Below, piece by piece: positions 2,660 through 29,488 of a stretch of DNA of 64,000 bases. A program made the translations under genes and the position numbers. Under the pieces are notes generated by a model. It had not been told where the DNA came from. It searched no databases and saw only the letters and a list, made by a program, of their open reading frames with translations. The stretch's first letter is position 1. Each line of letters starts with the position of its first letter. Origin of the DNA: a virus; IMG/VR virus record IMGVR_UViG_3300024265_000031; one strand, written 5' to 3'.

Positions 2660-3600
2660 AAATTATTCACACAATCCTTTTCTATTAAAAAATCCAAAGT
2701 CTCTTGTATTGATTCTTTAATAGTATACTTTGGTTTCCATCCTAACGACATTATCTTTGCGATATCTAACCAAATAAATGAATTATCTCCCTTCCAACTT
2801 TCTCCAGTAAAAGAAAATTTAGGAAGTAAATTTAAATGTTCAGCTACAACTCTTGCACAATCTGTTACACTTAAATATTCATCTGTTCCCAAATTAAAAA
2901 TATTTACTTGCTCTTTTGATTTATCAATTGCTACCAACATTCCCTCAATACAGTCTTGCACATTCAAATAACTTTTACAAATGGTTCCATCTCCAATTAT
3001 TTCAAGATTATAAACATCTTCTCTCAATTTATTGTAAAAATCTACAACAAATCCCTTATGGTAATTTTTCCCAAGCAATGACACAAACCTAAATATCCAA
3101 CTTTGAAATCCATATCCTTCACAATATGCTTGTATTAAACTTTCTCCAGCTAATTTAGAAGCTCCATATAATGATGTTTGAATTGGAAATGGCGCATCTT
3201 CTGGAATAGGAACATCTTTTGTTTCTCCATATACAGACCCAGTAGAAGCAAACATAATATTTTTTATTTTATTTTTTCGCATTGCTTCTAAGATTGTAAA
3301 TGTTCCCATTGTATTTTGATTTAAGTCTTTTTCAGGAGTTTTTAATCCATACCTAACATCTGCATTTGCAGCCAAATGAAAAATAAAACCACAATCTTTC
3401 ATTGCCCATGTTAAATTTTCAAAATCTAGTATGTCACCATTTATCATACAAAAATTAGAAAATTTATATGCGTCATATAGATACTTGCTTTTCCCAGTAC
3501 TAAAATTATCATATCCTACAACTTCATATCCATCAGTTAGCAGCCTATCAACTAGGTTGCTTCCAACAAATCCTGCAGCGCCAGTAACAAACGCTTTCAT
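2656..3600 (-). CDS. NAD-dependent nucleotide-sugar epimerase/dehydratase (GalE-like extended SDR)
   Basis: TGAAGFVGS, DNFSTG, HLAAN, STGSVYGE, YGASK. Confidence 0.93.
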   Translation of the reverse strand: MKAFVTGAAGFVGSNLVDRLLTDGYEVVGYDNFSTGKSKYLYDAYKFSNFCMINGDILDFENLTWAMKDCGFIFHLAANADVRYGLKTPEKDLNQNTMGTFTILEAMRKNKIKNIMFASTGSVYGETKDVPIPEDAPFPIQTSLYGASKLAGESLIQAYCEGYGFQSWIFRFVSLLGKNYHKGFVVDFYNKLREDVYNLEIIGDGTICKSYLNVQDCIEGMLVAIDKSKEQVNIFNLGTDEYLSVTDCARVVAEHLNLLPKFSFTGESWKGDNSFIWLDIAKIMSLGWKPKYTIKESIQETLDFLIEKDCVNNL

Positions 3601-4685
3601 TCATTATATCCTTTATCAATAATTTCTTTGCATGTATTTAAAATCTTAGATACATTCTTATCTATAGTTTGATTCATTGCAAATTTATATGGTTCTTCTT
3701 TAGCAAACTTGCGATGATCATCAAGATTTTGTATCATTTCTTCTATTGTTGTGTACCAAATATTTTGTTGATTTTTTATTACTTTCCCATACTGTTTAAT
3801 ATCATCATACGATTTATTATCTGATCCAATCCAAGGAATTTTCAACAACATATATTCAAGTGGCTTAATCCAAGAACGTCTTTGATCATATTGTCCGCAG
3901 AGTGGAGCTAACCCAATGTCAAAATTAGCTAAAACTTTAGGCCATTCAGAAAATTTAACAAATTTATTATAAGTTTTCTTATCGTCTGGCAAATTAATTT
4001 TATCATATACTCTCTTATCGCCAGCAATCATAATCTTTACTTGAGGATAATTTTTACATATTTTTTGTAATGCTTTTATTATTCCACTCTCTTCAAAACT
4101 TTGCACATGAGAAAGACTTCCGCCCCATCCTATGATTATATTATCACCATTGTCTTCTTTTATAACATTTTTATAATGAGTAATATCGACATAGTTAGGA
4201 ACATAATATGCATCTGAGTACCTATCCCAATCTTTCATCAAAACTTTAGACGGTAACATAATTCCCGCCACCATTCTCAGCCCCCACTTAAATTGTGTTA
4301 GGGGCAATGGCTTTATCTCAACATCTACCTCTCCCTCTGGAGTTTTATTTTTTGCAGATCCTAAAACCCAAAATGGATAGGCAATGTTAGTGTCACGCAT
4401 CATATCATATGCATCATCAAAGTTTGCAACTATCATTTTATTACGAACTTTCCAGTACATAATCATTGTCAAATTATCACCAAAGAAATTTCTTTCAATG
4501 ATAATTATGTCTGCCTTGTTACATAGGTTTTGTACTTCTGGTGAATTTGCAGCAAATTGACCAGAATTAATTAAATAAGCCTCATTTTTCTTTGTTTTAT
4601 TAATGGCATCAACTGGCATCACACATCTCCAATTGGTGGTATTATATTCCTTGTAGGAATCCGCATAAACATATACAATTATCAA
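3597..4685 (-). CDS. Glycosyltransferase (GT-B fold, phage type)
   Basis: FDDAY, IGWGGSLSH, DIGLAPL, KPLEY motifs. Confidence 0.8.
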   Translation of the reverse strand: MIIVYVYADSYKEYNTTNWRCVMPVDAINKTKKNEAYLINSGQFAANSPEVQNLCNKADIIIIERNFFGDNLTMIMYWKVRNKMIVANFDDAYDMMRDTNIAYPFWVLGSAKNKTPEGEVDVEIKPLPLTQFKWGLRMVAGIMLPSKVLMKDWDRYSDAYYVPNYVDITHYKNVIKEDNGDNIIIGWGGSLSHVQSFEESGIIKALQKICKNYPQVKIMIAGDKRVYDKINLPDDKKTYNKFVKFSEWPKVLANFDIGLAPLCGQYDQRRSWIKPLEYMLLKIPWIGSDNKSYDDIKQYGKVIKNQQNIWYTTIEEMIQNLDDHRKFAKEEPYKFAMNQTIDKNVSKILNTCKEIIDKGYNE

Positions 4686-4725
4686 TTTTATCTCCTCATT
4701 CCACGCATATTGTTAAAAGCAAAAA

Positions 4726-4799
4726 CGCTGATGACGAGATTTGAACTCGCAAGCCTTCTGTTCGACAGACAGATGTGCTACCATTTACACCACACCAGC
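4726..4799 (-). tRNA. tRNA-Asp(GTC), no encoded CCA
   Basis: Cloverleaf: GCTGGTG/CATCAGC acceptor, TCTGT-CTGTCGA-ACAGA anticodon arm, GTTCAAATC T loop. Confidence 0.93.
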
Positions 4800-4823
4800 A
4801 CAATAAAATTTTCACTAATTCAA

Positions 4824-4852
4824 ATTATACCACACAATTGTTATTTTGTCAA
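4824..4852 (-). promoter_or_regulatory. sigma70-type promoter for tRNA-Asp and the sugar operon
   Basis: TTGACA-17-TATAAT with TG extension. Confidence 0.85.
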
Positions 4853-5039
4853 TGGTTATTTTATAATATTTCCAAATAAAATCAAAGTTTTATTTCAAAT
4901 TGTAACAAGAAACATAATACAATTCCACCTATAATAAGAAATAAAAAATTAGCTAATCCCAACACATATACAGGTAAATATAAAACTATTCCAATTAAAG
5001 CAATATTTATTATCCATTTGCCAATAATTCGTAACATAT

Positions 5040-5558
5040 TTATTTATTTTCCAATGTGTTTGTTATATCAAATAAAATTTCTTGGATTTTTCTATTGCTA
5101 TCAATGATGTGTGTAACTTCACTTTCAATTCCTTGAAAAACTCCTTGGTCTGAAAATATTCGTTTTACTATTTCCATGATTTCATCGCCTCGTTTTGCCA
5201 TACGAATTAGCCTTTCCCTTTCTGTACATTTCAAATAAAAAGATGTAATATTTAGGTTTTTCATTTTCTTTAATTGTCGTAATCCACTTGGTTCTACAAC
5301 TACAACAGCATCATTTGTGCAATCGTCTTTAGCAATGCCATAATGCCAACCACGATATGTAACGTGTTCTGCAAAAAATCCATCTTGCTTATTATACTCA
5401 AAAGCCTCTTCAGTTAAAAAATGATAGTCTTTCCCATCGTTTTCGCTGGATCTTCCTGGCCGTGTAGTGTAAGATATTATTTTATCGTATCCCAATTTTA
5501 CTAATTCGTTTTCAATAGTGCTTTTCCCTGATGCAGATTCTCCCATGAGTACAATCAT
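5040..5558 (-). CDS. gmk: Guanylate kinase
   Basis: GESASGKS P-loop, SYTTRPGRSSENDGKDYHF signature, YGI. Confidence 0.9.
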   Translation of the reverse strand: MIVLMGESASGKSTIENELVKLGYDKIISYTTRPGRSSENDGKDYHFLTEEAFEYNKQDGFFAEHVTYRGWHYGIAKDDCTNDAVVVVEPSGLRQLKKMKNLNITSFYLKCTERERLIRMAKRGDEIMEIVKRIFSDQGVFQGIESEVTHIIDSNRKIQEILFDITNTLENK

Positions 5559-6109
5559 AATTCCGCTGCTTCAATCACAAATTTGACACAATTCACTACC
5601 TTTTCCCAATTTTCTGCTATAAGAAAACCTGAAGAATTTTTTTGTTCAAGTTCATTCCAAGGTCTTGCATATAGAATTGATAATCCAGAAAAATTATTTA
5701 TATTATGTATAGCATCATCAATCATTATGTTTGCTTTGATAAGACTCTTATCGTGGCATTCAAAATAATCCATTTTATTACACTCATATCCATGGTCATT
5801 TAGCCATCTAAGTTTTCTTCCAGCAGATCCATTGGTAGAAGCTGTTGTAAAAATAACCCTATGTCCCATTCGTCTTAATCTAATTATGCCAACTTGAGAT
5901 CCTAGCACTGGATGTATGTAATCATACATGTTTGGATTTTCAATGTAATCAAGAATCTTATTCCCACATTTTGGACTAACAAACTTCTCTATGTCCCATT
6001 CAATTATATCTTGCGGACGAAGATAATCTCTGTAGTCGCGGTTATATTCAAGCAACCACCTAGAAATTAAATCAGCACACACATCATCTACATCTACCAT
6101 AACAATCAT
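5555..6109 (-). CDS. 5'(3')-deoxyribonucleotidase (HAD, NT5C family)
   Basis: DVDDVCAD, DKSLI, MIDD, PWN motifs. Confidence 0.88.
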   Translation of the reverse strand: MIVMVDVDDVCADLISRWLLEYNRDYRDYLRPQDIIEWDIEKFVSPKCGNKILDYIENPNMYDYIHPVLGSQVGIIRLRRMGHRVIFTTASTNGSAGRKLRWLNDHGYECNKMDYFECHDKSLIKANIMIDDAIHNINNFSGLSILYARPWNELEQKNSSGFLIAENWEKVVNCVKFVIEAAEL

Positions 6110-6140
6110 ATATTTTTCCTGAATAAAATAATCATTTTAT

Positions 6141-6533
6141 TTAAGTATACCACACTTCACCTTCAACTTTGTGATATTTTTTTTCATAAACAAGAACGCC
6201 CCCTTCTATTGATCCATCCTGAATAGAAAGCATAACATTTTTGTTTTTTAAAAAATCATATTCAATCTTGAGATATTTTTCAATGTTATCTTTCTGATCA
6301 TTCATGTAAAAGACAACGGTTTCAAACTTACCAAATGCATAAACATCTCTATTTAAACTAGATAAGATTGCTTCTGCATCTTCAAGTTTTGTTGTATAAA
6401 TGTTTTCATGATGTGCAAAAGTGTTTGCTGTAAAATCATGTGGCATAACAACAACTGTCTTATATATTCCTCCAAATACAGCTTGTTCTCCTATCCTTTT
6501 AGATTTAAAACCCTTTCCTTGAAAAATCAACAT
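6141..6533 (-). CDS. Hypothetical protein
   Basis: ORF with AGGAG RBS, flanked by palindromic sites. Confidence 0.7.
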   Translation of the reverse strand: MLIFQGKGFKSKRIGEQAVFGGIYKTVVVMPHDFTANTFAHHENIYTTKLEDAEAILSSLNRDVYAFGKFETVVFYMNDQKDNIEKYLKIEYDFLKNKNVMLSIQDGSIEGGVLVYEKKYHKVEGEVWYT

Positions 6534-6573
6534 TCTGTTCTCCTGATATTCAATAAAATGATCGTTTTATCTT

Positions 6574-6864
6574 TTAAAGTTTGAATTGAATTGACGAGAA
6601 CAAGTACTTATTTATAAAGGGAAACAACACTCTACCACACCACACAATACTCAACCAACCCAAAGGAAGTATAGAAACAGGAATAAAACTTGCTACAAGC
6701 CATCCGTTTTCCTTAGTGTCTTGTTTTATCATATCGGAAAAACACCATGCCAATGATGCCCAAGTTAAGAACATAGGCAATCCCATAATTAATATGATAA
6801 TTCCAATAATATAAAAAATAATTTTCCACAATATCGTATTTATTTTTCTCAATAAAATAGCCAT
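6574..6864 (-). CDS. Hypothetical membrane protein
   Basis: Two hydrophobic segments; start moved to MAILLRK to avoid overlap. Confidence 0.6.
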   Translation of the reverse strand: MAILLRKINTILWKIIFYIIGIIILIMGLPMFLTWASLAWCFSDMIKQDTKENGWLVASFIPVSILPLGWLSIVWCGRVLFPFINKYLFSSIQFKL

Positions 6865-6865
6865 T

Positions 6866-7057
6866 TTATTTATCGTCATCGTTCCAATGATTTCCAATCC
6901 ACCAAAATATAACAATAACTATTGCCGCAGAACTAAACACTAAAGTTATTATTGGTAAATCTAGCCAATCTCCATCGAACTGTGTTACACACCAAATACA
7001 ACTTGCATATGTTCCGCCGCACAAAAATGCCAATGCGTACTTTATTCCTTGTATCAT
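6866..7057 (-). CDS. Small membrane protein
   Basis: AGGAG RBS, two hydrophobic helices. Confidence 0.7.
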   Translation of the reverse strand: MIQGIKYALAFLCGGTYASCIWCVTQFDGDWLDLPIITLVFSSAAIVIVIFWWIGNHWNDDDK

Positions 7058-7066
7058 TTTATCTCC

Positions 7067-7270
7067 TCAGTTTTTATTTTCTTCTTTATTATTTGTTGCT
7101 GAATAAAAATCTTTTCCAATAAATTTAATTGTTGGAACAGCAAACAATTTTTTAGCAATTTGATTACAAATGGGACATGCTATATTTAGTTTGCTAGGAT
7201 CTTCCCAGTGTTTAAAAAGTTTTTCAAATGTTAATTCGCAAGAAGCGCATTCAAATTCATACAGAGGCAT
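7067..7270 (-). CDS. FmdB-family zinc-ribbon protein
   Basis: MPLYEFECASC...CPIC...FIGKDFY. Confidence 0.85.
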   Translation of the reverse strand: MPLYEFECASCELTFEKLFKHWEDPSKLNIACPICNQIAKKLFAVPTIKFIGKDFYSATNNKEENKN

Positions 7271-7772
7271 TTTTCTTTTTCAATTTCTTCAATGGCTTTT
7301 TAGACGTTGAATGATAAGCTCTCTTAATCACACGCATATAATGCATTCTTCCCCTATGATTATTGCCAAAAACTCTTTTCAGAGTAGCCATAGCTAGACC
7401 AAATTCTTCAGAGAATTTATCTTCTTTTGTGCATCTCACTGTAGTTTTAGTGCCATCAGGCCATAAAACAGTTGTGAATGGATCAGCAAACCAAATTTTT
7501 TCTGGTGTAAGTTGTTCAATCTTATTGAATTTCACTTGTCTTTTCCTTTTTTGTTTATTTCTATCATATATAATTTCTTCTTCTTTTGTGACTTTTACAA
7601 TATTATATTGGTTTTGAGGATATACCATATCTTCATTGTATCTGCTAGGATTTACAGCTATCCATCCACCTTTTCGTCTTCCCTTCAATTCTCCAGCCTC
7701 CAAAACTATAGTATATACTCTTCCATTGGCTAATTCTACAACCATTCCTGGTTCTAAATCTTTAAGTTTCAT
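7257..7772 (-). CDS. Hypothetical two-domain phage protein
   Basis: Likely start MKLKDLEPGMVVEL; C-terminal TTVLWPDGTKTTVRC...EFGLAMA domain common in phages. Confidence 0.7.
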   Translation of the reverse strand: MKLKDLEPGMVVELANGRVYTIVLEAGELKGRRKGGWIAVNPSRYNEDMVYPQNQYNIVKVTKEEEIIYDRNKQKRKRQVKFNKIEQLTPEKIWFADPFTTVLWPDGTKTTVRCTKEDKFSEEFGLAMATLKRVFGNNHRGRMHYMRVIKRAYHSTSKKPLKKLKKKNASV

Positions 7773-7776
7773 ATAT

Positions 7777-8232
7777 TTATTTATCCTTTTCTTGTATAAC
7801 AATTGAATCAATTTGATTTATATATGCTTCCATTACTAATCTATAACATGTCATATTCGGAAAATATTTTTTAGGATTTAAAAATTTCCAATCCTGTTCA
7901 TCTTGAAAAATTTTTCCTATTGCTGCCGCTATACCAGCAGATCTTGAAATTCCAGCAGTGCAATGAATTATCAAATAGTTGGCATTTTTCTCAGGGATAT
8001 CGTGAATAACGAATCCTACGATTTGTTCTGCGTCTCTTTTTGACATTGGAGTAGCATATTTAGTCTCGTTCCATTCAACGTCATCAAATGACATTCTTAA
8101 AATACTAATCAAAGATCCCAGTTTAATTTTTGCCCAAGGCGCATTATTATCAACAATAGATATCATAATAGAATTTTCTGGAAATTTCTCAGTTTCTTCT
8201 GCTTCTCTCTGTGACATTACTATAATTTTCAT
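7777..8232 (-). CDS. Protein-tyrosine/dual-specificity phosphatase-like protein
   Basis: HCTAGISRS (CX5R) loop, FDD acid loop, PN motif. Confidence 0.88.
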   Translation of the reverse strand: MKIIVMSQREAEETEKFPENSIMISIVDNNAPWAKIKLGSLISILRMSFDDVEWNETKYATPMSKRDAEQIVGFVIHDIPEKNANYLIIHCTAGISRSAGIAAAIGKIFQDEQDWKFLNPKKYFPNMTCYRLVMEAYINQIDSIVIQEKDK

Positions 8233-8256
8233 AATTCTCCAGATAAAATCTTGTTT

Positions 8257-9243
8257 TTATTGGGTATCGTTTTGATCCCAACTACCTTGATACAATTTCA
8301 TATGTTCAACTTCTGTTCTATCCATGATAACACGAAAATACAATTCTGTCAAGCCCTTTCGGTCTGCTGAGAAAGGCAATTCTGAATGCTCGTACCATTT
8401 ATTAAAATTTAAATCAATCTTTTCTGCTTCTTCAACCACTTGTTCGTATGAAAAGGATCCATTTTTTATTCCCAAAAGGAATTCTCTGTTATTTAATGGG
8501 AACCTAATCTCTCCAGTAAGTAAAAGCTGTCTTCCTTCTTCAATCAATCTAAATAAATGATAGGCATGTTTAGTATCATAACCATGTTTATCTTCTAAGA
8601 TTTTTCGTTCTGGGTTACGATTCTTAAACCATTGCATATAATTGTCCCATTTCTTTTTTTCAATCCTATATTCAACTTCTCTATAGATTTCATCCACTAC
8701 TGCTTCATGTAAGTATGCCTTACCAATTTTTGCAATTGCATCAAGACCTTCGCCAGAAATAAGAGGAACATCAGGTAATCCACGTTCAAATCTAGTTGGT
8801 TTTTTTGTTGGTGGATTGATAAACCATTGCCTACGTCTCTTGATCGCATTCAACTGGCTAATAGCATATCCAGAGAAAGTATACCTTGCTTTTTTGCTAA
8901 GAAACAAATGTTTATTCTCAAGTATAAGTTTCCATCTGTTATTCATATGCAAAATGTTTTCATTGGGAATGAAAAGCATTTCAATAATGTTTGGATTGGC
9001 ATCAGCACACAGTTTGAAGAATTTAGCTAATGCATAAATTGTTTTATCTTCATTTTCAAACCCGCTATCTTTTTGATCGAAGTTCATAAAGGGGTCTAAA
9101 AGAATTTCTTCTGGCGGAAGACACACTCCCCTATAATCATAGTCAGAAATCTCTGTATGTGTGCCGTATAATCTGCTGCCTGTCACACACTCAAAAATTT
9201 TAAAATCTAGATGGTCAGGATCAAACTTTATTTTTTGTTTCAT
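8257..9243 (-). CDS. Pol-beta superfamily nucleotidyltransferase (T4 NrdC.11/RlaP-like)
   Basis: GSRLYGT...SDYDYRGV, NPNIIEML, GYDTKHAYHLFRL. Confidence 0.88.
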   Translation of the reverse strand: MKQKIKFDPDHLDFKIFECVTGSRLYGTHTEISDYDYRGVCLPPEEILLDPFMNFDQKDSGFENEDKTIYALAKFFKLCADANPNIIEMLFIPNENILHMNNRWKLILENKHLFLSKKARYTFSGYAISQLNAIKRRRQWFINPPTKKPTRFERGLPDVPLISGEGLDAIAKIGKAYLHEAVVDEIYREVEYRIEKKKWDNYMQWFKNRNPERKILEDKHGYDTKHAYHLFRLIEEGRQLLLTGEIRFPLNNREFLLGIKNGSFSYEQVVEEAEKIDLNFNKWYEHSELPFSADRKGLTELYFRVIMDRTEVEHMKLYQGSWDQNDTQ

Positions 9244-9267
9244 AAAATTTTCACGGAAGTCCTTATT

Positions 9268-9489
9268 CTAAAAACAATTATTGTTTTTAAAATCTTCTGC
9301 TATTTCTTTATCTAGCAAGTCAAAATCAAATTCCCTATGTTTTGTAATTTTTCTTCTATCGCATCTTATGCATCTCTTATAGGCGGCCCAATGTCTTACT
9401 GGCATTCCAAAGTCACTATGGCCAAGATATTCTGTTTTATCCATTTTCCAAATGTGATCGCAAAAAATTTGTGTTATAAATTTTAACAT
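9268..9489 (-). CDS. Small Cys/His zinc-binding protein
   Basis: FCDHIW...CIRC. Confidence 0.65.
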   Translation of the reverse strand: MLKFITQIFCDHIWKMDKTEYLGHSDFGMPVRHWAAYKRCIRCDRRKITKHREFDFDLLDKEIAEDFKNNNCF

Positions 9490-9491
9490 AT

Positions 9492-9710
9492 TTATTTTGG
9501 AGCTCCTCTTCTTAGTTTACTATAAGGAGAATCCTTGCAATCACATGTTATGGTCTTTTCTATTGCTCCCTTTTTCAATAAAAAATGCATGTATCCATCG
9601 CAAACCCATATTTTGTCTTGAAGAATCTCGCGCTTTGAATACTCAACAATATTGTCACATTTATCCATTATTTTATTCCTTTCCAATAAAACATTCATTT
9701 TATCTGTCAT
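9492..9710 (-). CDS. Hypothetical protein
   Basis: Co-oriented, overlapping neighbour. Confidence 0.6.
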   Translation of the reverse strand: MTDKMNVLLERNKIMDKCDNIVEYSKREILQDKIWVCDGYMHFLLKKGAIEKTITCDCKDSPYSKLRRGAPK

Positions 9711-10107
9711 TGTAGATTGCTGTTTCTGCCATAATTTTTCTTAATATGTCCATATCTCCAGTTTTGTTATGTTGTCGTAAATCCTCTCTAATCTTTTTTA
9801 TACATTCTATTGCATGTTCATTTTCTTTTCTAAGAGATTCGACTTTAATTGTCTCGCTTCTTTTATTAACTTGTTCGCCATACATTTCCCACCACTTTTC
9901 ATCTAAATCGCCAGCGAATAGATGATTTGCTTCAGATTTTTCTATTTTTACCATAACAAATTTTCTTGTTACTTCATTTTCAAGTAACTTTTTGTGAGAT
10001 TTGGCAATCCAATGAGCTAAATCAATAGCTTCCAATGTTACGAGTCCATTTTCAGAGGTTGACCATATAACCCAACAAGGAATTTTTGGTTTATTTTCGT
10101 CTATCAT
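9700..10107 (-). CDS. Hypothetical protein
   Basis: GGAG RBS directly after palindromic site. Confidence 0.7.
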   Translation of the reverse strand: MIDENKPKIPCWVIWSTSENGLVTLEAIDLAHWIAKSHKKLLENEVTRKFVMVKIEKSEANHLFAGDLDEKWWEMYGEQVNKRSETIKVESLRKENEHAIECIKKIREDLRQHNKTGDMDILRKIMAETAIYNDR

Positions 10108-10131
10108 GTCTTCTCCAATAAAATATTGCTT

Positions 10132-10380
10132 TTATCTGAATAAGACAATTTTATTTTTTTTATCAACAAAGATATATACTGTTTCTTGGTGTTTTTCCAA
10201 TGTTCTGCCTAACAGTTGCCTTGATAACCAACAAGACTCCTTTTTCCATTTCATGTTTTCTTTTTTAATTTTAAGATTATCTATAATTAAGTCTTCATAT
10301 TGCTGATAATAATAAACATTATAGCCCCAAAATTCTCGTTCTATCTCTGCTTTTATTGCATCCACTATTTCTTTTTTCAT
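10132..10380 (-). CDS. Hypothetical protein (copy 1 of duplicated cassette)
   Basis: GGAG RBS; stop in palindrome arm; near-identical copy at 10859-11017. Confidence 0.75.
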   Translation of the reverse strand: MKKEIVDAIKAEIEREFWGYNVYYYQQYEDLIIDNLKIKKENMKWKKESCWLSRQLLGRTLEKHQETVYIFVDKKNKIVLFR

Positions 10381-10403
10381 ATTTTCTCCAATAAAAATTC
10401 ATT

Positions 10404-10595
10404 TTATTTAATTTTTTGAATCATTAATCTGGTTGCAAGATACACTATCGGACAAGGCCATGTAAATACTAGAATAATCCATGTCCAAACTTTTAACAAT
10501 GAAGACTTGCTTTCATCATCTCTTAAAGTACAATCCCAGTATGCTGATGCAAGAGCTAAACCACATAAATAATAAAGTATATATATTATAACCAC
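10404..10595 (-). CDS. Small membrane protein
   Basis: Two hydrophobic segments. Confidence 0.6.
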   Translation of the reverse strand: MVIIYILYYLCGLALASAYWDCTLRDDESKSSLLKVWTWIILVFTWPCPIVYLATRLMIQKIK

Positions 10596-10849
10596 TAAGA
10601 CGCTCCCTTTCCCTTAGTATCATTAAAAATATTGGCAACATCCCATTCCCACTGTTCTTCTGGATCTCCTATTTCTTGTTCCAAGATTGTTTGTGTCCTA
10701 TGCCACATATCTATTTGTAATTCTGGTGCTGCAAAAGATGCACTTGTTTGAGCTTTTCTAAGATTCATTATGAAAACGCCATGTTCTCTTATCTTAGGAA
10801 TACATTCTATAATTTCTTCTATTATATCATAAATATTTCTATCTGTCAT
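10595..10849 (-). CDS. Hypothetical protein
   Basis: AAGGA RBS, co-oriented. Confidence 0.7.
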   Translation of the reverse strand: MTDRNIYDIIEEIIECIPKIREHGVFIMNLRKAQTSASFAAPELQIDMWHRTQTILEQEIGDPEEQWEWDVANIFNDTKGKGAS

Positions 10850-10858
10850 TTTTTCCTT

Positions 10859-11017
10859 TTATCTGAACAAAACAATTTTATTCTTTTTCATGTTTTCTTT
10901 TTTAATTTTAAGATTATCTATAACCAAATCTTCATATTGTTGATAATAATAAACATTATAACCCCAAAATTCTCGTTCTATCTCTGCTTTTATTGCATCT
11001 ATTATTTCTTTTTTCAT
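10859..11017 (-). CDS. Hypothetical protein (copy 2, 52 aa, lacks 90 nt present in copy 1)
   Basis: MKKEIIDAIKAEIEREFWGYNVYYYQQYEDLVIDNLKIKKENMKKNKIVLFR. Confidence 0.7.
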   Translation of the reverse strand: MKKEIIDAIKAEIEREFWGYNVYYYQQYEDLVIDNLKIKKENMKKNKIVLFR

Positions 11018-11045
11018 ATTTTCTCCAATAAAACGTTGGTTTTAT

Positions 11046-11318
11046 CTAAATTACTACAACTGAATTTTCAATCACAAATTCAATCTCAACAAAATCTTTT
11101 CCTATTGTTACTGAAAACCCACCAGTGCTACATGCCCCAACATCTTTTTCACACAAATCAAACAACGTTTTGCAATTTTCTTTCATGTCTGATATGTTTG
11201 GCACTCCTTCAATGCCTGTCCAAGCCCAATTTAGATATTCCATAACATCTTTAACTGTTTTAAAATTAAAATTTTTCATTGCTTCATCAAATGCATTTTG
11301 TTTTTGTTCATTATTCAT
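11046..11318 (-). CDS. Hypothetical phage protein
   Basis: GGAG RBS; FNFKTVKDVM..LNWAW..STGGF pattern; flanked by sites. Confidence 0.75.
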   Translation of the reverse strand: MNNEQKQNAFDEAMKNFNFKTVKDVMEYLNWAWTGIEGVPNISDMKENCKTLFDLCEKDVGACSTGGFSVTIGKDFVEIEFVIENSVVVI

Positions 11319-11353
11319 TATTTCTCTCCAATAAAACGCCTGTTTTATTTAAA

Positions 11354-11596
11354 TTATTCTTGTTTCAAACTATTAATTTCTTCCTTTAAATCATCAATGG
11401 TATCAAGATATTGGGATTCACCTGATTCAAGAACTTCATAACCATAAGTCAAATCGGATAATTCCTCTTTTAGGTCTTCCACATTCTTTGTTAGTTTTTC
11501 AATAGCTTTTTCTTTATCATTTAAAAGTTGTGTTATCTCAAAATCAACAGCAAATCGTTTTCCGTTTATTTCAACCAAATATACTGTATCAACCAT
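11354..11596 (-). CDS. Hypothetical coiled-coil protein
   Basis: GGAG RBS; flanked by sites. Confidence 0.7.
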   Translation of the reverse strand: MVDTVYLVEINGKRFAVDFEITQLLNDKEKAIEKLTKNVEDLKEELSDLTYGYEVLESGESQYLDTIDDLKEEINSLKQE

Positions 11597-11813
11597 ATTT
11601 TTACTCCAGATAAAACAAGTGTTTTATTCAAATCCCATTTTCTTATAACAATCATCACATACTATTGAACAGTCATCTGTAGTAGAATCTTCGCCAAAAT
11701 TATTCTTCATTTCAGCCACAGCTTCTTCCTCTGACCAACCTTTTTCAAATTCTCCAGAACATACTGCACACTTATACTCATTATCTTTCATAATTATCTC
11801 CAAGATAAAACTG

Positions 11814-12098
11814 TCATTTTATCTTTATTCTATATCCAAGTGCTTGTTCAATTTCTTCATGTGTCATTTCGTTTACTTGAAAATATTTTTCATAATCTTC
11901 CTGTGTTGCTCCACTTCTATTGATATCAATATCATCACCCCAATTTACAGGCGCAACTTGCACATCAAACTCATTGAGCATTGCTTCGCACTTAAGATCC
12001 ATGGCGTACAATAAATCATTTGCCGTTTTATAGCAATTATTCATATCAACAGCATACAATGTCATTTTATATATTTTGATTGGGTGTGTTTCTGTCAT
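11814..12098 (-). CDS. Hypothetical protein with C-terminal MTxEEIEQxLGY motif
   Basis: AGGAG RBS; flanked by sites. Confidence 0.72.
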   Translation of the reverse strand: MTETHPIKIYKMTLYAVDMNNCYKTANDLLYAMDLKCEAMLNEFDVQVAPVNWGDDIDINRSGATQEDYEKYFQVNEMTHEEIEQALGYRIKIK

Positions 12099-12124
12099 CT
12101 TTACTCCTAGATAAAACGGTTATT

Positions 12125-12484
12125 TTATTTAGTCACAATTCCTATTTTATATCCTAATTGATCTTCAATTTCTTGTTGAGTCATTTTTATAATTTGATGA
12201 TCTTTATCCAAAATATTTTTCCAAAGATCACTTAATGGATTCCATGTAAATCCAGTTGTTCTTGTTGGCGCATATATTTTTGTTATGTTCATTCTTTCAA
12301 CATCAACAAATTCTATGTCATTTTTGGTAAAATAATAAATTGGATTCCATCCTTCATCATTACAATCATTAGTTTGACTAAATATAGTATCTTCCCCCAT
12401 ATAGGAATTTAAAACAACCATATATATTTTTCCCCCAAACGCTTCTATCAGCATTCCGCTTTTTAAATCACTTCTTTTTATCAT
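12125..12484 (-). CDS. Hypothetical protein with C-terminal MTxxEIEDQLGY motif
   Basis: AGGAG RBS; flanked by sites. Confidence 0.72.
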   Translation of the reverse strand: MIKRSDLKSGMLIEAFGGKIYMVVLNSYMGEDTIFSQTNDCNDEGWNPIYYFTKNDIEFVDVERMNITKIYAPTRTTGFTWNPLSDLWKNILDKDHQIIKMTQQEIEDQLGYKIGIVTK

Positions 12485-12600
12485 TTTTATCTCCTAGATA
12501 AAACAGGTATTTCATTTGCCAAAAATAAATGTAAGACCCAACATGATTAAAAATACAACAATGATAAGAGTCCCTGGATCGATTTCAAATTTTCCAAATT

Positions 12601-12822
12601 TCATATTTTTTCTCCTCGCTCTTCCATAATCCAATATTTTGCTTTATTTATAAATTGTCTGGCTGTTTCTGTATCTCCATGTTCCAACACTTATTGAGCA
12701 TCACTAAGGATTGACATAGCCCACAATAAATTATCATAGAACGAGCTTTGTTCTAATTGCATTTGTTTAATTGTTATACCAAACATTTCTATTTCTTGAT
12801 CTTTTTTGGATCCTGCTAACAT
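12601..12822 (-). pseudogene. Small phage gene with in-frame TAA at 12691-12693
   Basis: RBS and ATG at 12822; reads MLAGSKK...AMSILSDAQ*VLEHGDTETARQFINKAKY..., frame continues to TGA at 12601. Confidence 0.6.
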
Positions 12823-12870
12823 TTGTTTTCTCCTATTTTCTTGTATATTTAAATGAAATGAACCTTTTAT

Positions 12871-13068
12871 TTAAAGTATATATACTTGTTGTTTAATTTC
12901 TGTTATGCTTTCTACCCAACCTTCTTCTTTTAATTCTGGAACAACATTTTGAATGTTTAAACAAACGGCTGTAACATCTTGAGCAACTATAGAAACCGTC
13001 TTGTTATTGGCATATTCTTTTTTAAGTCTTATAACTACGTCATATACTTTCATTTTGCATCTCCTCAT
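12871..13068 (-). CDS. Hypothetical protein
   Basis: AGGAG RBS before internal ATG (MKVYDV); promoter TTGATA-17-TATAGT just upstream. Confidence 0.65.
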   Translation of the reverse strand: MRRCKMKVYDVVIRLKKEYANNKTVSIVAQDVTAVCLNIQNVVPELKEEGWVESITEIKQQVYIL

Positions 13069-13219
13069 ATTTTACTATATCATACTTGTTCGCTTTTATC
13101 AAATCACCACCCACTAGCCAATATTATAAGAGCACCTACCAAACAGAATAAACATCCATATTAAAGTACTATCTTCCATTTTATATCTCCTTGTATCTTA
13201 CTAAATTTTGATTTACTCA

Positions 13220-13265
13220 GTTCTCCTTCGGGATTCGAACCCAACACACCAATTCATGAGGAGAA
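13220..13265 (-). ncRNA. tRNA-like mini-RNA lacking an anticodon arm
   Basis: TTCTCCT/AGGAGAA 7-bp acceptor, TTGGG-TTCGAAT-CCCGA T arm, 14-nt D-like linker CATGAATTGGTGTG. Confidence 0.6.
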
Positions 13266-13293
13266 GTATTTCTATTATTGTAACATATTTGAC

Positions 13294-13689
13294 TTATTCT
13301 GTCAAGCCTAAATCTACTTCGACATCTGGAACAATTGTGCTTGGTCTAAAAATAACACGATAACGGTAAATACTTTCCGTTGATGATTCAATCTGTTCCG
13401 CAAAATACGTCACGTTATCTGATAATCCAAGAAAGTGTTTCTTGTATGCTTCAGGGCCAACCTTGCAAGTTACGGTCAATTCACCATCACTGTCATAATT
13501 TCCAAGAGAACACAGTCCTTCAATTTGCAAAATATATTCGCTTGTTATCCCATTGTAAAATACGATACGGCGCGTTACTTCAAAGTTATCAGCCGCAAGC
13601 GACAGATTCCTTGATGCTACGTCTGCTGGTTGAGCGCATCCACTGAAAATCAGAACAATCAACAATACAATCCAAAGTAATCTTTTCAT
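13294..13689 (-). CDS. Lipoprotein of a conserved phage family
   Basis: Signal peptide with lipobox FSGC; ADNFEVTRRIVFYNGIT motif. Confidence 0.8.
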   Translation of the reverse strand: MKRLLWIVLLIVLIFSGCAQPADVASRNLSLAADNFEVTRRIVFYNGITSEYILQIEGLCSLGNYDSDGELTVTCKVGPEAYKKHFLGLSDNVTYFAEQIESSTESIYRYRVIFRPSTIVPDVEVDLGLTE

Positions 13690-13937
13690 TTTTTATCCTT
13701 TTTATTTTTATAGTTTAGTCAATCTAAGTTATATCACATTTCTTATAAGCATCTCCAAATAAAATGTTGTTTTTATTTAAAAGCTGTAATGATCTGTAAA
13801 CCAAGAAATTCCTTTACCGCATATACAAATACCAGTAACCCACCCCCCAACGTGAATTAATCCACTGGCAGGAAAGAACCCTCCGATCAGACAAAATAAA
13901 AGCCCAATAAAAATAAGTATATCTGTTGCTGTTATTT

Positions 13938-14309
13938 TCATATCGTTTCCTTATACAATGCATTTTGAATTTCAAAAAATCCAAACGGCAAACCATTTAA
14001 TTTACCCTGCTTATCATAACTTGCTTTGGTTACATTGCCATTAATTATATGTACATCAATGTCCCAATAATCTAACCTGTTATCATTAATCATATGTCCA
14101 ATAAATGTAGGTGTTGTTTGTCTCAACGTATAAATATTTAAACAATTATAATCTCCCCCTTTTGCTAATGAAATATGTTCTAATATATACTCACATTCTT
14201 CTACTGGATTTCTTGATCTCTCTGGATAAAAAAGCTGCAATCCTTTCTTTTTTTGTTTAAATAATCCCACATCTTTTTCATTCTTCATAATTATTAAATT
14301 AATTTTCAT
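13938..14309 (-). CDS. Hypothetical protein
   Basis: AGGAG RBS before MKINL. Confidence 0.65.
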   Translation of the reverse strand: MKINLIIMKNEKDVGLFKQKKKGLQLFYPERSRNPVEECEYILEHISLAKGGDYNCLNIYTLRQTTPTFIGHMINDNRLDYWDIDVHIINGNVTKASYDKQGKLNGLPFGFFEIQNALYKETI

Positions 14310-14491
14310 TGTATATCTCCTGTTAGACAACCATTTTTACAATATGGATCACTATCTAAAAATTCTGTGTCATCACAATGATTTTCTTTACCACAAAAAA
14401 CACATGGCAACATTAATGGATCCTCTTCAAACATTTTTTTTACTTCTTTACTGTTACTTTCGATTAAACGTATGGTATTACTCATTACCAT
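14306..14491 (-). CDS. Small Cys-rich protein
   Basis: CVFC..C..C..C, overlapping operon structure. Confidence 0.6.
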   Translation of the reverse strand: MVMSNTIRLIESNSKEVKKMFEEDPLMLPCVFCGKENHCDDTEFLDSDPYCKNGCLTGDIQ

Positions 14492-14733
14492 TGATTCTCA
14501 GATTCTACTGGAACTTTGAATGCAAGAGCAAAACTTTGCAAGCATTTCTCACACAAATCAAAGTGCCATATTTGACCATCAAATCTAGATCCATAGCCAA
14601 ACCCAATTTTTATTTCTTGCATCAAACTTACAAAATGTTCGCTTGTTACTTGCTCTATTTCCCCACAACTATTGCAAACAATTTCAGACACTTCATAAAC
14701 AGTCTTTTTAGTTTCTCTTAGGAAATCTCTCAT
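14485..14733 (-). CDS. Small zinc-finger phage protein
   Basis: CNSC...FGYGSRFDG...DLCEKC. Confidence 0.75.
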   Translation of the reverse strand: MRDFLRETKKTVYEVSEIVCNSCGEIEQVTSEHFVSLMQEIKIGFGYGSRFDGQIWHFDLCEKCLQSFALAFKVPVESENQW

Positions 14734-15410
14734 GATTCCTCCAATCTTTTTTGTGCAATTTGGAACATGACTGGATCATTTTCGAGCCCCACACAATTCC
14801 TGTTATTGTCTTTTGCCCACCTTGCAGTAGTTCCTGAGCCAAGAAATGGATCAAGTATCCAATCATCTTCATCAGTAAATGGCAATAGCAATCTATCCAT
14901 AAGTTTCAATGATTTTTGCCATTGAACATTTTTGCCACTTTTGTCCTTGACTCTTTCTTTTGACATTGTATGAAAATTGCCCAAATCATAGAATACGTCA
15001 CAAGGAATTTTCAATCCAGTTCCCTTTTTATCTAATGCTGTACCTGCAGTTTTTTTGGGCACTCTAATACGATCATGATAAAACTTGTAATCTTTTCCTT
15101 TAGCCCAAATAAGAATGTCATCATGTTTTCTTGGAAAATATCGTTTAGAAACCCCTCCCCATTCCATGACATATATGGCATGATTAACAAAGTATGCTTT
15201 CAAATCATACTTGAATATCATCATATATTCACCTACAGTATGATGGTCTGTTTGCACAATAAATATACCATTTTCTTTGAGCAATTTCCAGCATATCTCT
15301 ACCCAATCAAAATTCATACTTTCATAGATACAATCTCCATAGACTAAATCAAACTGTTTATTAATCTGATTTAGCCATGTAAGATTGTCTGTGTTATGAA
15401 GTTCTATCAT
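14730..15410 (-). CDS. DNA amino-methyltransferase (N6A/N4C, beta-class order) with atypical catalytic motif
   Basis: C-terminal ILDPFLGSGTT SAM-binding motif, QK motif; motif IV reads DCIY instead of DPPY. Confidence 0.85.
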   Translation of the reverse strand: MIELHNTDNLTWLNQINKQFDLVYGDCIYESMNFDWVEICWKLLKENGIFIVQTDHHTVGEYMMIFKYDLKAYFVNHAIYVMEWGGVSKRYFPRKHDDILIWAKGKDYKFYHDRIRVPKKTAGTALDKKGTGLKIPCDVFYDLGNFHTMSKERVKDKSGKNVQWQKSLKLMDRLLLPFTDEDDWILDPFLGSGTTARWAKDNNRNCVGLENDPVMFQIAQKRLEES

Positions 15411-16438
15411 GCTGCCAACGCATACTCTTCTATGACTTTTACGCCACGATTCATTGCATTGGCGCGCTGACCAAAAAGGATTGAATTTTCAGGTTTCTTC
15501 CTTGTAGCTCTAGCCCAGTTTTCCATTTCGCTGACTGAATTCCAGAGATCATAACACGTATTTCCAGCAATTCCAGTTCCTTCACCATCAAACAATCTCA
15601 TTGTCAAATCAACATCTCGCTCAGACTTTACAATTGATTGTTCAACTAAATCTTCCCTGGCTGGCCTCAATTCATCTGGGTAGTATTCTGGAACTTGTGG
15701 CAATGAAGGATAGACATCAAACAATAAGTTATATGCTTCAGAACGACCTATTGAAGTTCGTTCAAACAGATTGAACAAATTCTCTGTAGCAAAAGCTTGT
15801 TGTTCTGCATTCTGTTGAACATAGTTCATCCAGATACCCAACTCTTTTGCCATCTCTTTAGAGTTATGTCTTCCTGTCCAAATCTTTCCCCTTCCCTTTT
15901 CTTTAGATTGTTCAGCTTGTGAAATAGCAGCCATCCATGTATTCTGACATACCACACGAATTGTAACTACATTTAGTTGCGCTCCCAATTTAGAATCAAA
16001 TCCAAGCGCTACAAATCCATAAGTATCAATTTGGTCGTTTTTACGTACATCAAAACTATTCAACTTCCAAGTGAGAAACATTTTTTCACCCTTTCCTAAA
16101 AATCCAAGAGTTTCTACAGGACGATTAACCTTTTCATCAAACAGATCAATGGCTGTTTCTGGCTGAAGAATCTGATATCTGTCACTGGCGAATCCCATGA
16201 CGCGTTCCTGCGGATCTTCTAGAATCGGAGAACGAACAATACAAATCTGCTCAGTCTCCCTCAGTTCACCATTGAGAAACACACTTACTGGTCTAGTGTC
16301 AAACACTACAAATCCGTTAATCTTCTCCATAGAATCCCTGCCATTTAGAGGCTCTTGGGATACATGACCTAATTCATGCCATGCTGGAGTTCTCAACCCA
16401 TAAAATCTTTCGCCTAGCACATTTCCTGACATCATCAT
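15407..16438 (-). CDS. DUF932 / phage-plasmid LGT family protein
   Basis: RTPAWHELG, YQILQP, ETLGFL, TIRVVCQNT motifs. Confidence 0.85.
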   Translation of the reverse strand: MMMSGNVLGERFYGLRTPAWHELGHVSQEPLNGRDSMEKINGFVVFDTRPVSVFLNGELRETEQICIVRSPILEDPQERVMGFASDRYQILQPETAIDLFDEKVNRPVETLGFLGKGEKMFLTWKLNSFDVRKNDQIDTYGFVALGFDSKLGAQLNVVTIRVVCQNTWMAAISQAEQSKEKGRGKIWTGRHNSKEMAKELGIWMNYVQQNAEQQAFATENLFNLFERTSIGRSEAYNLLFDVYPSLPQVPEYYPDELRPAREDLVEQSIVKSERDVDLTMRLFDGEGTGIAGNTCYDLWNSVSEMENWARATRKKPENSILFGQRANAMNRGVKVIEEYALAA

Positions 16439-16481
16439 TTTATATATCTCCTTTATTTTCTAGTCTAATTTATCTTACTTA

Positions 16482-16510
16482 ATTATATCATATTTGATTC
16501 ATTATGTCAA
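16482..16510 (-). promoter_or_regulatory. sigma70-type promoter
   Basis: TTGACA-17-TATAAT, TG extension. Confidence 0.85.
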
Positions 16511-16549
16511 GTCAAAATTGTTATTGTAGCTACGGATAAAATCCATGTT

Positions 16550-16741
16550 TTATTTGGGAAACCATGAGCCTGATTTTTCGTCTTGTTGCCAAAATCTTTT
16601 TGCAACTTCTAAGTCCCTTTTCAAGCATCTTATTTCATGAGAAATATTAACTTCATCATTAAAATTGGTGCAACAATGCAATGCACCTATAGCTTTATCA
16701 AGCCTGTTTTGTATGTCTATGGGATTGAATTTTCTATTCAT
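16550..16741 (-). CDS. Hypothetical protein
   Basis: AAGGAG RBS; stop in palindrome arm. Confidence 0.7.
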   Translation of the reverse strand: MNRKFNPIDIQNRLDKAIGALHCCTNFNDEVNISHEIRCLKRDLEVAKRFWQQDEKSGSWFPK

Positions 16742-16759
16742 TTTTCTCCTTGTTTCACT

Positions 16760-16880
16760 TAATTATCTAGTATACTAGATAATTATATAATTGTTAAGAA
16801 TCTTTTTTAATTTTGTTATTAATATTTATCTAGAATACTATATTATTATGGTTGTATCTAGTATTCTATATTATTAAATA
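16760..16880. promoter_or_regulatory. Operator/iteron-like cluster TATCTAGWATWCTA including a perfect 26-bp palindrome
   Basis: TAATTATCTAGTATACTAGATAATTA at 16760-16785 plus two direct copies near 16827 and 16855; adjoins minus-strand promoter 16875-16903. Confidence 0.55.
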
Positions 16881-16914
16881 TCATACTTTTCAAATTTTGT
16901 CAAGGGTACAAATG

Positions 16915-17271
16915 TTATGACTTTGCTAAATCTTTTCCACATTTACATGTACAGTTTTTAAATGTATCTAAATCAACATCTTGGGCTTTGCGTCCACATT
17001 CACATGCAATTACGGATATCGTTTTTTCTTCTTCCATGTCTCGAATGAAATATTTATACATATCATTTTTCTTGTTCCATAACTTGATCAATTTGCGAAA
17101 TGCTGTTATGTTCTTGCACCACACAGAGCCCTTTGTTATTTCTTTGTTGCGCCATAGATTTTCACATTCATAGAAAAATTGTTTATAGGGTCGCAATTCA
17201 ACTGGCACTTGCCATTCTTCGTAGAAGTGTTTAAGTTGATCAAGTTCGTCTTTTGGTTTAGTTACGTTCAT
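16915..17271 (-). CDS. Hypothetical protein with C-terminal zinc ribbon
   Basis: GGAGG RBS; CECG...CKCG. Confidence 0.72.
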   Translation of the reverse strand: MNVTKPKDELDQLKHFYEEWQVPVELRPYKQFFYECENLWRNKEITKGSVWCKNITAFRKLIKLWNKKNDMYKYFIRDMEEEKTISVIACECGRKAQDVDLDTFKNCTCKCGKDLAKS

Positions 17272-17497
17272 AGCCTACCTCCAAATAAAATGTCTCTTTT
17301 ATTGTGGCATTATCAAAAATACACCAGTAACAACAACCAATATTATTGTGGCTATTGCCACATATATTTTATTGTAGTTGCTAATCCCATGGTCTGCCAC
17401 ATCATAATAAAAGAAGCAATGAATGGTGAAGCTATAAGCAAGCATCCTATTATAAGTCTTATCATAATTTTCTCCTTCAAATAAACATTTTTTTTAT

Positions 17498-17833
17498 TTA
17501 ATCCATATTATCAGAAATAAGTTTGGCTCCATACGCTACTATTGCTAATACCACAAATGCTATAGCCCATCCTATCAGTATTTGCCAGCCCTTAGTAATA
17601 ATTGATATAATCATTATAATTGTAATTGGAGAGGTCGCCATTAGGATACCCATAAATAGCTTAAATTTTCTTTTATTCATGCTTACAAAGCTACCAAGAA
17701 TCAATCCAAGAATCAAACAAGAAGTCCACCCTGCCCAAAACGGTAAACCCCCAATGATAACTAAGAATATGTATAAAATTGTCCCGCAAAACATAATGAA
17801 AATTGCTTTTCCAATATTTCTTATTACTCTCAT
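17498..17833 (-). CDS. Four-helix membrane protein
   Basis: AAGGAG RBS; four hydrophobic segments. Confidence 0.72.
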   Translation of the reverse strand: MRVIRNIGKAIFIMFCGTILYIFLVIIGGLPFWAGWTSCLILGLILGSFVSMNKRKFKLFMGILMATSPITIIMIISIITKGWQILIGWAIAFVVLAIVAYGAKLISDNMD

Positions 17834-18066
17834 ATTTTTCTCCTTCAGAAATCTTTTATTATGTTGATTTCAATATCACGATTATAAATATAAGGATCAT
17901 ACAAACAAAAGAAGAACCTAAAACAATTCTTGTTCCTTCAATATCTTTTTCTGAGTCTAGGCGCAGACCGTTGAAAAAATTGATTATTGTAATTGCAATA
18001 TTAAAAATCATCCAGCCTTTATCAAATGTATTCATACTTTCTCCTTTGATAAAACCAACCTTTTAT

Positions 18067-18285
18067 CTAGCTTACAACACGTCTTTGAATTTCCTTTCTT
18101 TGTAGAGAAACAACATACCCACTAAGATCAAGTCTTATATCATAGGGTTTATCAAATGATGGGTTGATTTCTTCTATTGTTCCTTTAATTTCATCACCAT
18201 AGAATTTCTGCTCTGGGGTGTTGAAAAATTTAATCATTACGGTATCTCCTACATCTAGTTTTCTAGTCATATTTCTCCTTGACAA
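18067..18285 (-). CDS. Small SH3-like hypothetical protein
   Basis: AAGGAG RBS before MTRK; VGDTV motif. Confidence 0.6.
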   Translation of the reverse strand: MSRRNMTRKLDVGDTVMIKFFNTPEQKFYGDEIKGTIEEINPSFDKPYDIRLDLSGYVVSLQRKEIQRRVVS

Positions 18286-18307
18286 ATTTCAAATTTTGTG
18301 GTAGAAT
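18279..18307 (+). promoter_or_regulatory. sigma70-type promoter pointing antisense to the surrounding genes
   Basis: TTGACA-17-TAGAAT with TG extension on the plus strand. Confidence 0.6.
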
Positions 18308-18315
18308 TTTTTATT

Positions 18316-18549
18316 TTACCAATTGGCACAGACAAATTTTGCAAAGTCGCCATGCCAAATTTGTGAGTTACCAGTGCTTTCTCGTCTACGGGGAAAATTC
18401 TTAAAATGTTGATATATGTATTCAAGTTCATTGCCTGTTGCTTTTACCCAAACTACCGTATTAACATAGTTGATTGGGTGTATATCGTTACCAAGATATT
18501 GCCTATATTCAATTAGTTCAAATTGCTGAGATGTTTTTATATATAGCAT
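18316..18549 (-). CDS. Hypothetical protein
   Basis: Co-oriented ORF with RBS. Confidence 0.65.
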   Translation of the reverse strand: MLYIKTSQQFELIEYRQYLGNDIHPINYVNTVVWVKATGNELEYIYQHFKNFPRRRESTGNSQIWHGDFAKFVCANW

Positions 18550-18714
18550 TTATTCTTCCTTTCTGGCAAATATAGTTTTTTTACATTTTGTGCATCTTAT
18601 TGTAATACTCATTAAAATTATTTCATTGCCATTAATCATACACGATCCGATTCTCCAATTATGTTTGCATAGCAATTGTTTTATCCAACTTAACATATTT
18701 TCTCCTAAATAAAA

Positions 18715-18936: not shown

Positions 18937-18997
18937 TTATTGTTTCCTTTTCTTGGTGTACCAACTTTGTTGGTTAGCACACCAATAAATTTGGTTG

Positions 18998-29416: not shown

Positions 29417-29488
29417 GCCCGTAGTAGGATTTGAACCTACATTCTCCTATTTCGAAGATAGTTGCTGATCCAGTTTAGCTATACGGGC
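29416..29488 (-). tRNA. tRNA-Arg(TCG), no encoded CCA
   Basis: GCCCGTA/TACGGGC acceptor, loop CT-TCG-AA, GTAGG-TTCAAAT-CCTAC, A20 present. Confidence 0.9.

Follow-up and report, generated by a model that had tools for sequence, protein, structure and literature searches.

Two diverged copies of a phage gene end within a short intergenic palindrome that coincides with break points between SPbeta relatives

A window of 64,000 nt of viral DNA carries two diverged copies of one small gene, and the homology between the copies ends, at both ends of the gene, inside a short intergenic palindrome (ATAAAA-N6-TTTTAT). The pair is consistent with a role of the palindrome as an exchange joint, of which it is one supporting example that alone cannot prove the role. 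The explanation preferred here, which is given an even chance of being correct, is that imprecise recombination at such junction motifs joined diverged copies in one genome. The window comprises bases 19228-83227 of an 88,920-bp linear IMG/VR virus contig (IMGVR_UViG_3300024265_000031) that is estimated to be 59% complete, with 41% of the genome missing; its G+C content is ~32%, and the minus strand carries its genes as far as ~46 kb. The source is a large uncultured phage that the junction motif ties to SPbeta-like phages. Its closest named relative, by a single 680-aa protein with 64% identity to proteins of the Bacillus phages BCP78 and TsarBomba, is BCP78, in which no copy of ATAAAA-N6-TTTTAT was found.

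The open reading frames and local alignment bore out the original prediction of two near-identical copies at these coordinates, both on the minus strand (Table 1). The alignment consists of a block of 146 nt with 138 identical positions (10252-10397 = 10889-11034) and a block of 31 nt with 28 identical positions (10131-10161 = 10858-10888), and the in-frame 90-nt block of copy 1 had correctly been noted as absent from copy 2. On the gene-start side, identity runs through CATATTTTCTCCAATAAAA, after which the palindrome cores diverge (ATTCA, 5 nt, versus CGTTGG, 6 nt; TGAAT versus CCAACG on the coding strand), and on the gene-end side it starts at CTTTTAT (10129-10135 = 10856-10862), of which copy 2 retains the half-site only. 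Read on the coding strand, the shared sequence begins with TTTTATTGGAGAAAATATG, the right arm of the upstream palindrome followed by the ribosome-binding site and start codon, and ends with AGATAAAAG, the left arm of the downstream palindrome with the TAA stop, plus one core base. The boundaries at the cores are therefore visible in the alignment as first described, and alignment with 100-nt flanks confirmed that homology ends there: the 100 nt past each boundary scored about as shuffled sequence does (z of -0.4 and 0.1, versus 29 inside the gene), and the proteins flanking the two copies are unrelated. The two copies are the sole gene-sized repeat of >90% identity in the 88.9-kb contig. No palindrome separates the two genes that lie between them, and no homologues of the neighbouring small genes were found in any relative's genome compared. 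A weak local score between the 84-aa and 135-aa neighbours (BLASTP E of 0.26) was rejected as a sign of kinship, and the two are considered unrelated.

Table 1 Features of the duplicated gene and its surroundings (window coordinates)
Feature	Position	Strand	Remark
Outer joint, canonical palindrome downstream of copy 1 (ATAAAA-TATTGC-TTTTAT)	10118-10135		Exact match
Copy 1	10132-10380	minus	82-aa ORF
90-nt in-frame block, copy 1 only	10162-10251	minus	Residues 45-74, long beta-hairpin of the predicted model
Inner joint, aberrant palindrome upstream of copy 1 (ATAAAA-ATTCA-TTTTAT)	10391-10407		5-nt spacer
Two unrelated overlapping genes between the copies	10404-10849	minus	No palindrome between them
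63-aa gene between the copies	10404-10595	minus	Hydrophobic sequence, possibly membrane
84-aa gene between the copies	10595-10849	minus	ATG at 10849
Inner joint, aberrant half-site (CTTTTAT)	10856-10862		One arm plus one core base; holds the stop of copy 2
Copy 2	10859-11017	minus	52-aa ORF without residues 45-74 of copy 1
Outer joint, canonical palindrome upstream of copy 2 (ATAAAA-CGTTGG-TTTTAT)	11028-11045		Exact match

The four joints around the pair differ in kind. In coding-strand orientation, the left arm at the outer joint upstream of copy 2 comes after the TAG stop of a 90-aa gene, and its right arm is bordered by TGGAG and the ATG. At the outer joint downstream of copy 1, the TAA that ends copy 1 lies in the left arm, and the ribosome-binding site of a 135-aa gene directly follows the right arm. 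Downstream of copy 2, at the first inner joint, the second arm is absent and the next gene starts nine bases past the stop; at the other inner joint, the 5-nt spacer is unique among the 35 sites of the window and one of 2 among the 51 sites of the contig. The joints lie within the motif, because spacers and flanks are unrelated between the copies. Since both new inner joints are defective and both outer sites are canonical, the arrangement suggests an ectopic and imprecise event; exchange between full sites would regenerate full sites, and the half-site and the 5-nt spacer thus disfavour a clean exchange between two full sites. The defective inner joints lead to the prediction that exchange between unlike sites is imprecise.

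The palindrome stands between most of the genes and is present at 35 exact sites in the window, versus 0.65 expected, and the whole contig holds 48 exact and 25 one-mismatch sites. The spacer is exactly 6 bp at 34/35 window sites and at 48/51 exact-arm contig sites, and the arms, which consist of A and T only, are 6 bp and often extended to 8 bp, resulting in sites of 18-22 bp with a variable 6-bp centre. On the coding strand, the upstream stop is a TAA within the left arm at 29/61 sites and abuts the arm at 15/61, so that it has either of these two fixed positions at 44/61 sites. The next start codon mostly lies 10-17 nt past the right arm with GGAG between, and the motif fills intergenic gaps of 23-28 nt. 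As the left arm holds or touches the stop and the right arm precedes GGAG and a start codon, each arm-to-arm interval forms one self-contained translational unit. Some palindromes have no ribosome-binding site and are followed by a perfect sigma-A promoter instead (TTGACA-17-TGnTATAAT ~25 nt past the palindrome, at window 16482-16510 and 4824-4852 on the minus strand). Promoter-like sites as a class were not enriched (69 found versus 69.1 in shuffles), and no intrinsic-terminator-like sites were found in the 13 kb from 4000 to 17000, where 3.9 were expected. Any RNA hairpin formed by the motif would be weak (mean MFE of -3.5 kcal/mol) and paired within the arms only, with an A-C mismatch in the sense RNA wherever the common TTTCAT variant occurs; for these reasons an RNA hairpin is considered unlikely, and recognition of double-stranded DNA by a protein seems more likely than recognition of an RNA structure. 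An Rfam search of 9000-12600 returned no family. A scan of IMG/VR for the motif with GGAG gave single chance matches only, and the locus L059 proved to be an unrelated tandem repeat.

The original prediction took the pair to be an arm-to-arm unit and the best internal evidence that the palindrome marks mobile units. The first description holds to the extent that both boundaries lie inside palindromes and homology stops there; what had been concluded from it is weak. The arms and the GGAG are the same at ~50 sites, so that arm identity between the copies is uninformative on what was copied, is no proof that the arms were copied together with the gene, and leaves the exact crossover point unreadable. 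The non-coding sequence that is shared by the copies and not universal amounts to ~6 nt. Moreover, as the motif fills the gap and carries the stop, a whole-gene event that spares the neighbours must end inside it, and the boundaries are nearly forced. The arms, at 6-8 bp, are too short for ordinary homologous recombination.

Support for the wider claim comes from other phages. The palindrome is lineage-wide, with counts of 32, 41, 20 and 8 in the metagenomic phages G001, G002, G004 and G005, respectively, 13 in SPbeta (versus 1 in a reversed-pattern control), 17 in Geobacillus E3, 9 in Perkons, 18 in phi36, 15 in Izhevsk and 2 in Lactococcus P1048. The counts in SPO1 (0), phage K (2) and phiCD211 (1) are, like that in BCP78 (0), at chance level. 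In order to relate the motif to gene exchange, the break points between SPbeta and SPbetaL4, defined as the alignment ends of a megablast comparison (n = 76), were compared with random intergenic positions in 2000 simulations. Seventeen of the 76 break points lie within 10 nt of a palindrome (4.0 expected; equalled in 0/2000 simulations), and for 8/76 the distance to a palindrome edge is at most 1 nt (0.6 expected; again 0/2000). Seven of the 13 exact SPbeta sites are break points to the base, and at the yorT/mtbP junction the whole site, including the spacer, goes with the downstream gene, with homology ending 1-2 bases inside the left arm. This genome comparison independently supports the idea that the palindrome marks exchangeable units, which the pair alone does not establish, and the overall interpretation given in the original prediction is partly supported. 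Should the palindromes prove to be true exchange joints, they would give large SPbeta-like phages a built-in means of swapping single accessory genes that leaves the neighbours undisturbed; such swapping would resemble that of the promoter early stem-loops (PeSLs) of T4-type phages or of integron cassettes, but with a far shorter site that also carries a stop codon. SPbeta is genetically tractable, which makes the exchange idea testable.

The two copies have diverged mostly at silent positions. The 52 shared codons contain 7.5 synonymous (Sd) and 2.5 non-synonymous (Nd) changes, in agreement with the original remark that many differences are synonymous (7.5/10 coding differences), and correspond to a dS of ~0.38, a dN of 0.019 and a dN/dS of 0.05, with a synonymous excess of P ~1e-5. 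The ratio of 0.05, a measure that had been proposed together with the original prediction, indicates that the shared codons evolved under purifying selection. The dS of ~0.38 implies that the event is old or that one copy came from a diverged relative, a further reason for which the arm-to-arm argument is weak, and the copies are accordingly read from their divergence as probable old paralogues, or as alleles from two diverged phages.

Copy 1 is a member of an unnamed family of ~100-aa proteins (EFWGY..Y.PEYEDF ... KIVLFR), for which a search of 1.84 billion representatives returned only copy 2 and five distant ~100-aa homologues; P0003 (406 aa), which had clustered with copy 2, was found to be unrelated. 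Alignment showed that the five homologues retain the W...LF...YxFVD segment missing from copy 2, and because they keep it, the 90-nt difference is a deletion in copy 2 rather than an insertion in copy 1. In the AlphaFold model of copy 1 (pLDDT 85, pTM 0.73) an N-terminal helix is packed on a beta-sheet, and the deleted residues are predicted to correspond exactly to the long hairpin (strands 46-56 and 59-73); for copy 2, modelling reached a low confidence only (pLDDT 73, pTM 0.49). The deletion junction in copy 2 shows an AAA microhomology, and slippage between AAA repeats, at some separate time, may have taken the 30 codons (one beta-hairpin) from copy 2. The pair thus provides a case, within an ORFan family, of a copy that has lost a whole beta-hairpin and whose remaining codons are still under purifying selection. 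Pfam gave sub-threshold noise only for the duplicated gene, and Foldseek of the copy 1 model against PDB and BFVD gave nothing at E ≤ 0.001. The family was not found in IMG/VR, in metagenome contigs (by profile and exact 38-mer), or in GenBank phages by tblastn with two of the homologues, and the five motif-bearing relatives carry no copy of the gene. No relatives carrying the gene or its neighbours were found, hence no pre-duplication state is available for comparison.

For the order of events and the enzymology, we infer the following. Diverged paralogues, or alleles from two related phages, would have been brought into one genome by recombination with joints inside the junction signals, with two unrelated genes caught between them. 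For the ectopic and imprecise event itself, one candidate is template switching or short-homology recombination at the repeated, hairpin-prone arms, and another is an off-target act of whatever enzyme uses the sites. It counts against this preferred reading that it describes a single event, and that no further duplication of this kind was found in five genomes (the source contig, G001, G002, SPbeta and SPbetaL4).

A more specific account, considered unlikely, is a dedicated site-specific cassette system, comparable to integron cassettes or pdif modules, in which the inverted arms would be bound by a YomM-type tyrosine recombinase that cleaves where arm and spacer meet and mobilises the units from arm to arm. 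The sites have the geometry of recombinase cores (inverted arms of 6-8 bp around a 6-bp spacer at nearly all sites), both joints of the pair lie at arm/spacer borders, and the SPbeta/SPbetaL4 break points are precise to a single base. YomM homologues occur in the motif-rich phages G001, G002, G005, SPbeta, E3, Perkons, phi36 and Izhevsk, and SPO1, phage K and BCP78 have neither motif enrichment nor a tyrosine recombinase. This co-occurrence is, however, confounded by common descent, and Lactococcus P1048 has a YomM homologue with only 2 sites. Searches of the 88.9-kb contig gave no PF00589 or YomM match and no tyrosine recombinase, though 41% of the genome is missing from it. Full-site exchange always restores a full site, and a half-site and a 5-nt spacer are seen here; in addition, the spacers of the partner sites differ, which classical tyrosine recombinases do not tolerate. 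A variant that accommodates these joints, and that is likewise held to be doubtful, is that the pair is the scar of an ectopic act of an undescribed SPbeta-like cassette system, in which a YomM-type enzyme would act on 6-6-6 palindromes whose centres serve as slot addresses. Matching centres would then allow a clean cassette swap between co-infecting relatives, and non-matching centres would produce defective joints such as the half-site and the 5-nt spacer. In both SPbeta (NC_001884, 39885-39902) and Geobacillus E3 (25333-25350), the YomM-type recombinase gene is followed, 200-400 nt downstream, by an exact palindrome.

It is also improbable, to about the same degree, that the pair is an ordinary old duplication or paralogue family in which only the ORF is conserved and the palindrome is incidental, being merely a regulatory signal (for translation, RNA processing or the 3' end). 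The dS and the strong purifying selection are compatible with this, as are the shared non-coding sequence, which consists of consensus elements only, the nearly forced boundaries in gaps filled by the motif, and the palindromes that precede a perfect sigma-A promoter in place of a ribosome-binding site, which tie the motif to gene ends as expected of a regulatory signal. At ~30% neutral divergence, however, spacers of 5-6 nt and duplicated flanks would still be recognisable; here the spacers bear no relation to each other, and different genes form the flanks. An incidental motif also leaves the structural abnormality of both inner joints unaccounted for, together with the enrichment of SPbeta-relative break points at the motif, which holds even against a null restricted to intergenic positions. 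Far less probable than either of these is an assembly artefact, in which two strain alleles (the 82-aa and 52-aa forms) were chained via the 31-nt repeat, or copy 2 and the two genes form a separate circle. The sequence was found in one DNA run, and no RNA run is listed for it. Logan contigs, which derive from this subsurface-metagenome run that is probably the source sample and are not independent, break at the repeat, with a two-in, two-out node at the shared 31 nt, and 10279-10366 is uncovered in the listed pieces. Breaks at shared 31-mers are expected of a repeat, so that the uncovered stretch proves nothing, and reads pass a repeat of 31 nt with ease. A Logan contig that spans 10367-10915 places the start of the duplicated gene after the 63-aa gene. 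The piece carrying copy 2 has a depth of 22.1, above single-copy depth and near the 20.2 predicted if each genome has both copies; two-strain alleles would give 17.7 at most. The exact sequences of the 82-aa and 52-aa proteins are recorded on 3 contigs apiece, of which the longest is 150,297 bp.

Among known systems, the palindrome is similar to PeSLs (Arbiol et al. 2010, PMC2839356; Comeau et al. 2014, PMC4122927) in being a short conserved intergenic regulatory motif that flanks single accessory ORFans in plastic regions, and in that the joints of indels or replacements between related phages lie in the motif and leave one self-contained expression unit; such joints of gain, loss or replacement were found for SPbeta versus SPbetaL4. 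PeSLs are longer, combine a strong sigma-70 promoter with a G+C-rich terminator hairpin, and recombine by homology of tens of bases (PMC2839356, PMC4122927). The palindrome described here, in contrast, is 18-22 bp with all-A/T arms and a variable 6-bp centre, carries the stop codon of the gene before it, and is found in SPbeta-like Firmicutes phages. It has no strong early promoter of the sigma-70 type, as the start codon follows within 10-17 nt and promoter-like sites are at shuffled frequency, and it has no terminator-grade stem, given its A/T arms, its weak predicted folding and the lack of terminator-like sites in the 13 kb searched.

Tyrosine-recombinase core sites, such as Xer dif (11-6-11) and lox (13-8-13), likewise consist of inverted arms around a centre of fixed length, in their case 6-8 bp, as do 34/35 of the window sites. 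As with dif and pdif, gene modules are delimited by the sites, and motif-rich phages also carry tyrosine recombinase genes. The palindrome differs in that its arms are only 6-8 bp and its centres vary by site, and the joints of the pair are not two regenerated full sites with a shared centre: a half-site and a 5-nt spacer were found, and all spacers differ. In the picture supported in SPbeta relatives, the palindrome would act much as PeSLs or pdif modules do while lacking what defines each of them. Integron attC sites are imperfect palindromes of 57-141 bp with R and L boxes, and are recombined as folded single strands by IntI beside attI and Pc. An integron cassette is comparable in being a promoterless single ORF that ends in a palindromic site, with the unit defined from site to site; the palindrome differs in its length of 18-22 bp and in lacking the features of attC, and no integrase was found in the contig. 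Finally, SPBRE, the operator of the SPbeta master repressor MrpR (Kohm et al. 2023, PMC10516654), is also a repeated intergenic SPbeta element and is bound by a protein with a tyrosine-recombinase fold. It has another sequence (~AAAWAATATGTATA upstream of yorE, yorZ, yosX and yorM) and ~ten copies, at promoters; the 15-bp motif common to these four upstream regions is unrelated to ATAAAA-N6-TTTTAT, and identity of the palindrome with SPBRE was ruled out.

Several other features of the contig were recorded. Adjacent genes of 64 aa and 117 aa (contig 7680-7874 and 7901-8254; L146) are distant paralogues with 31% identity over 49 aa; each has palindromes on both sides, and the two may represent an older duplication of the same kind. 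Adjacent genes of 94 aa and 119 aa share only a C-terminal module, MT..EIE..LGY.I.I (window 11826-11891 and 12143-12208; 71% identity at the DNA level), and the palindrome after it, and positions 12125-12185 match large Clostridioides phages of the phiCD211 group (83.6% over 61 nt). A long run of sugar-modification genes, of an extent unusual for a phage, occupies window 344-4685 and contig 186-19300 (L146) and encodes UDP-glucose dehydrogenase, epimerases/dehydratases, FkbM methyltransferases, SDR and GFO oxidoreductases, and several family-2 glycosyltransferases, including a tandem pair that is 67% identical. A 409-aa protein (window 43659-44888, minus strand) has a GmrSD N-terminal (DUF262-type) domain, which occurs in modification-dependent restriction enzymes, and the gap between the helicase gene and this GmrSD-like gene contains a perfect 60-nt direct repeat (window 43362-43421 and 43434-43493, 12 nt apart). 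A 470-aa protein with no family match (window 54148-55560) has two internal repeats that are ~70% identical (54255-54391/54924-55054 and 54550-54800/55207-55457). Five tRNA genes (Asp, Arg-TCG, Arg-TCT, Lys and Cys) are located at window 4725-4800, 29416-29647 and 37277-37349, and a one-mismatch palindrome (29649-29666) adjoins the Lys tRNA gene.
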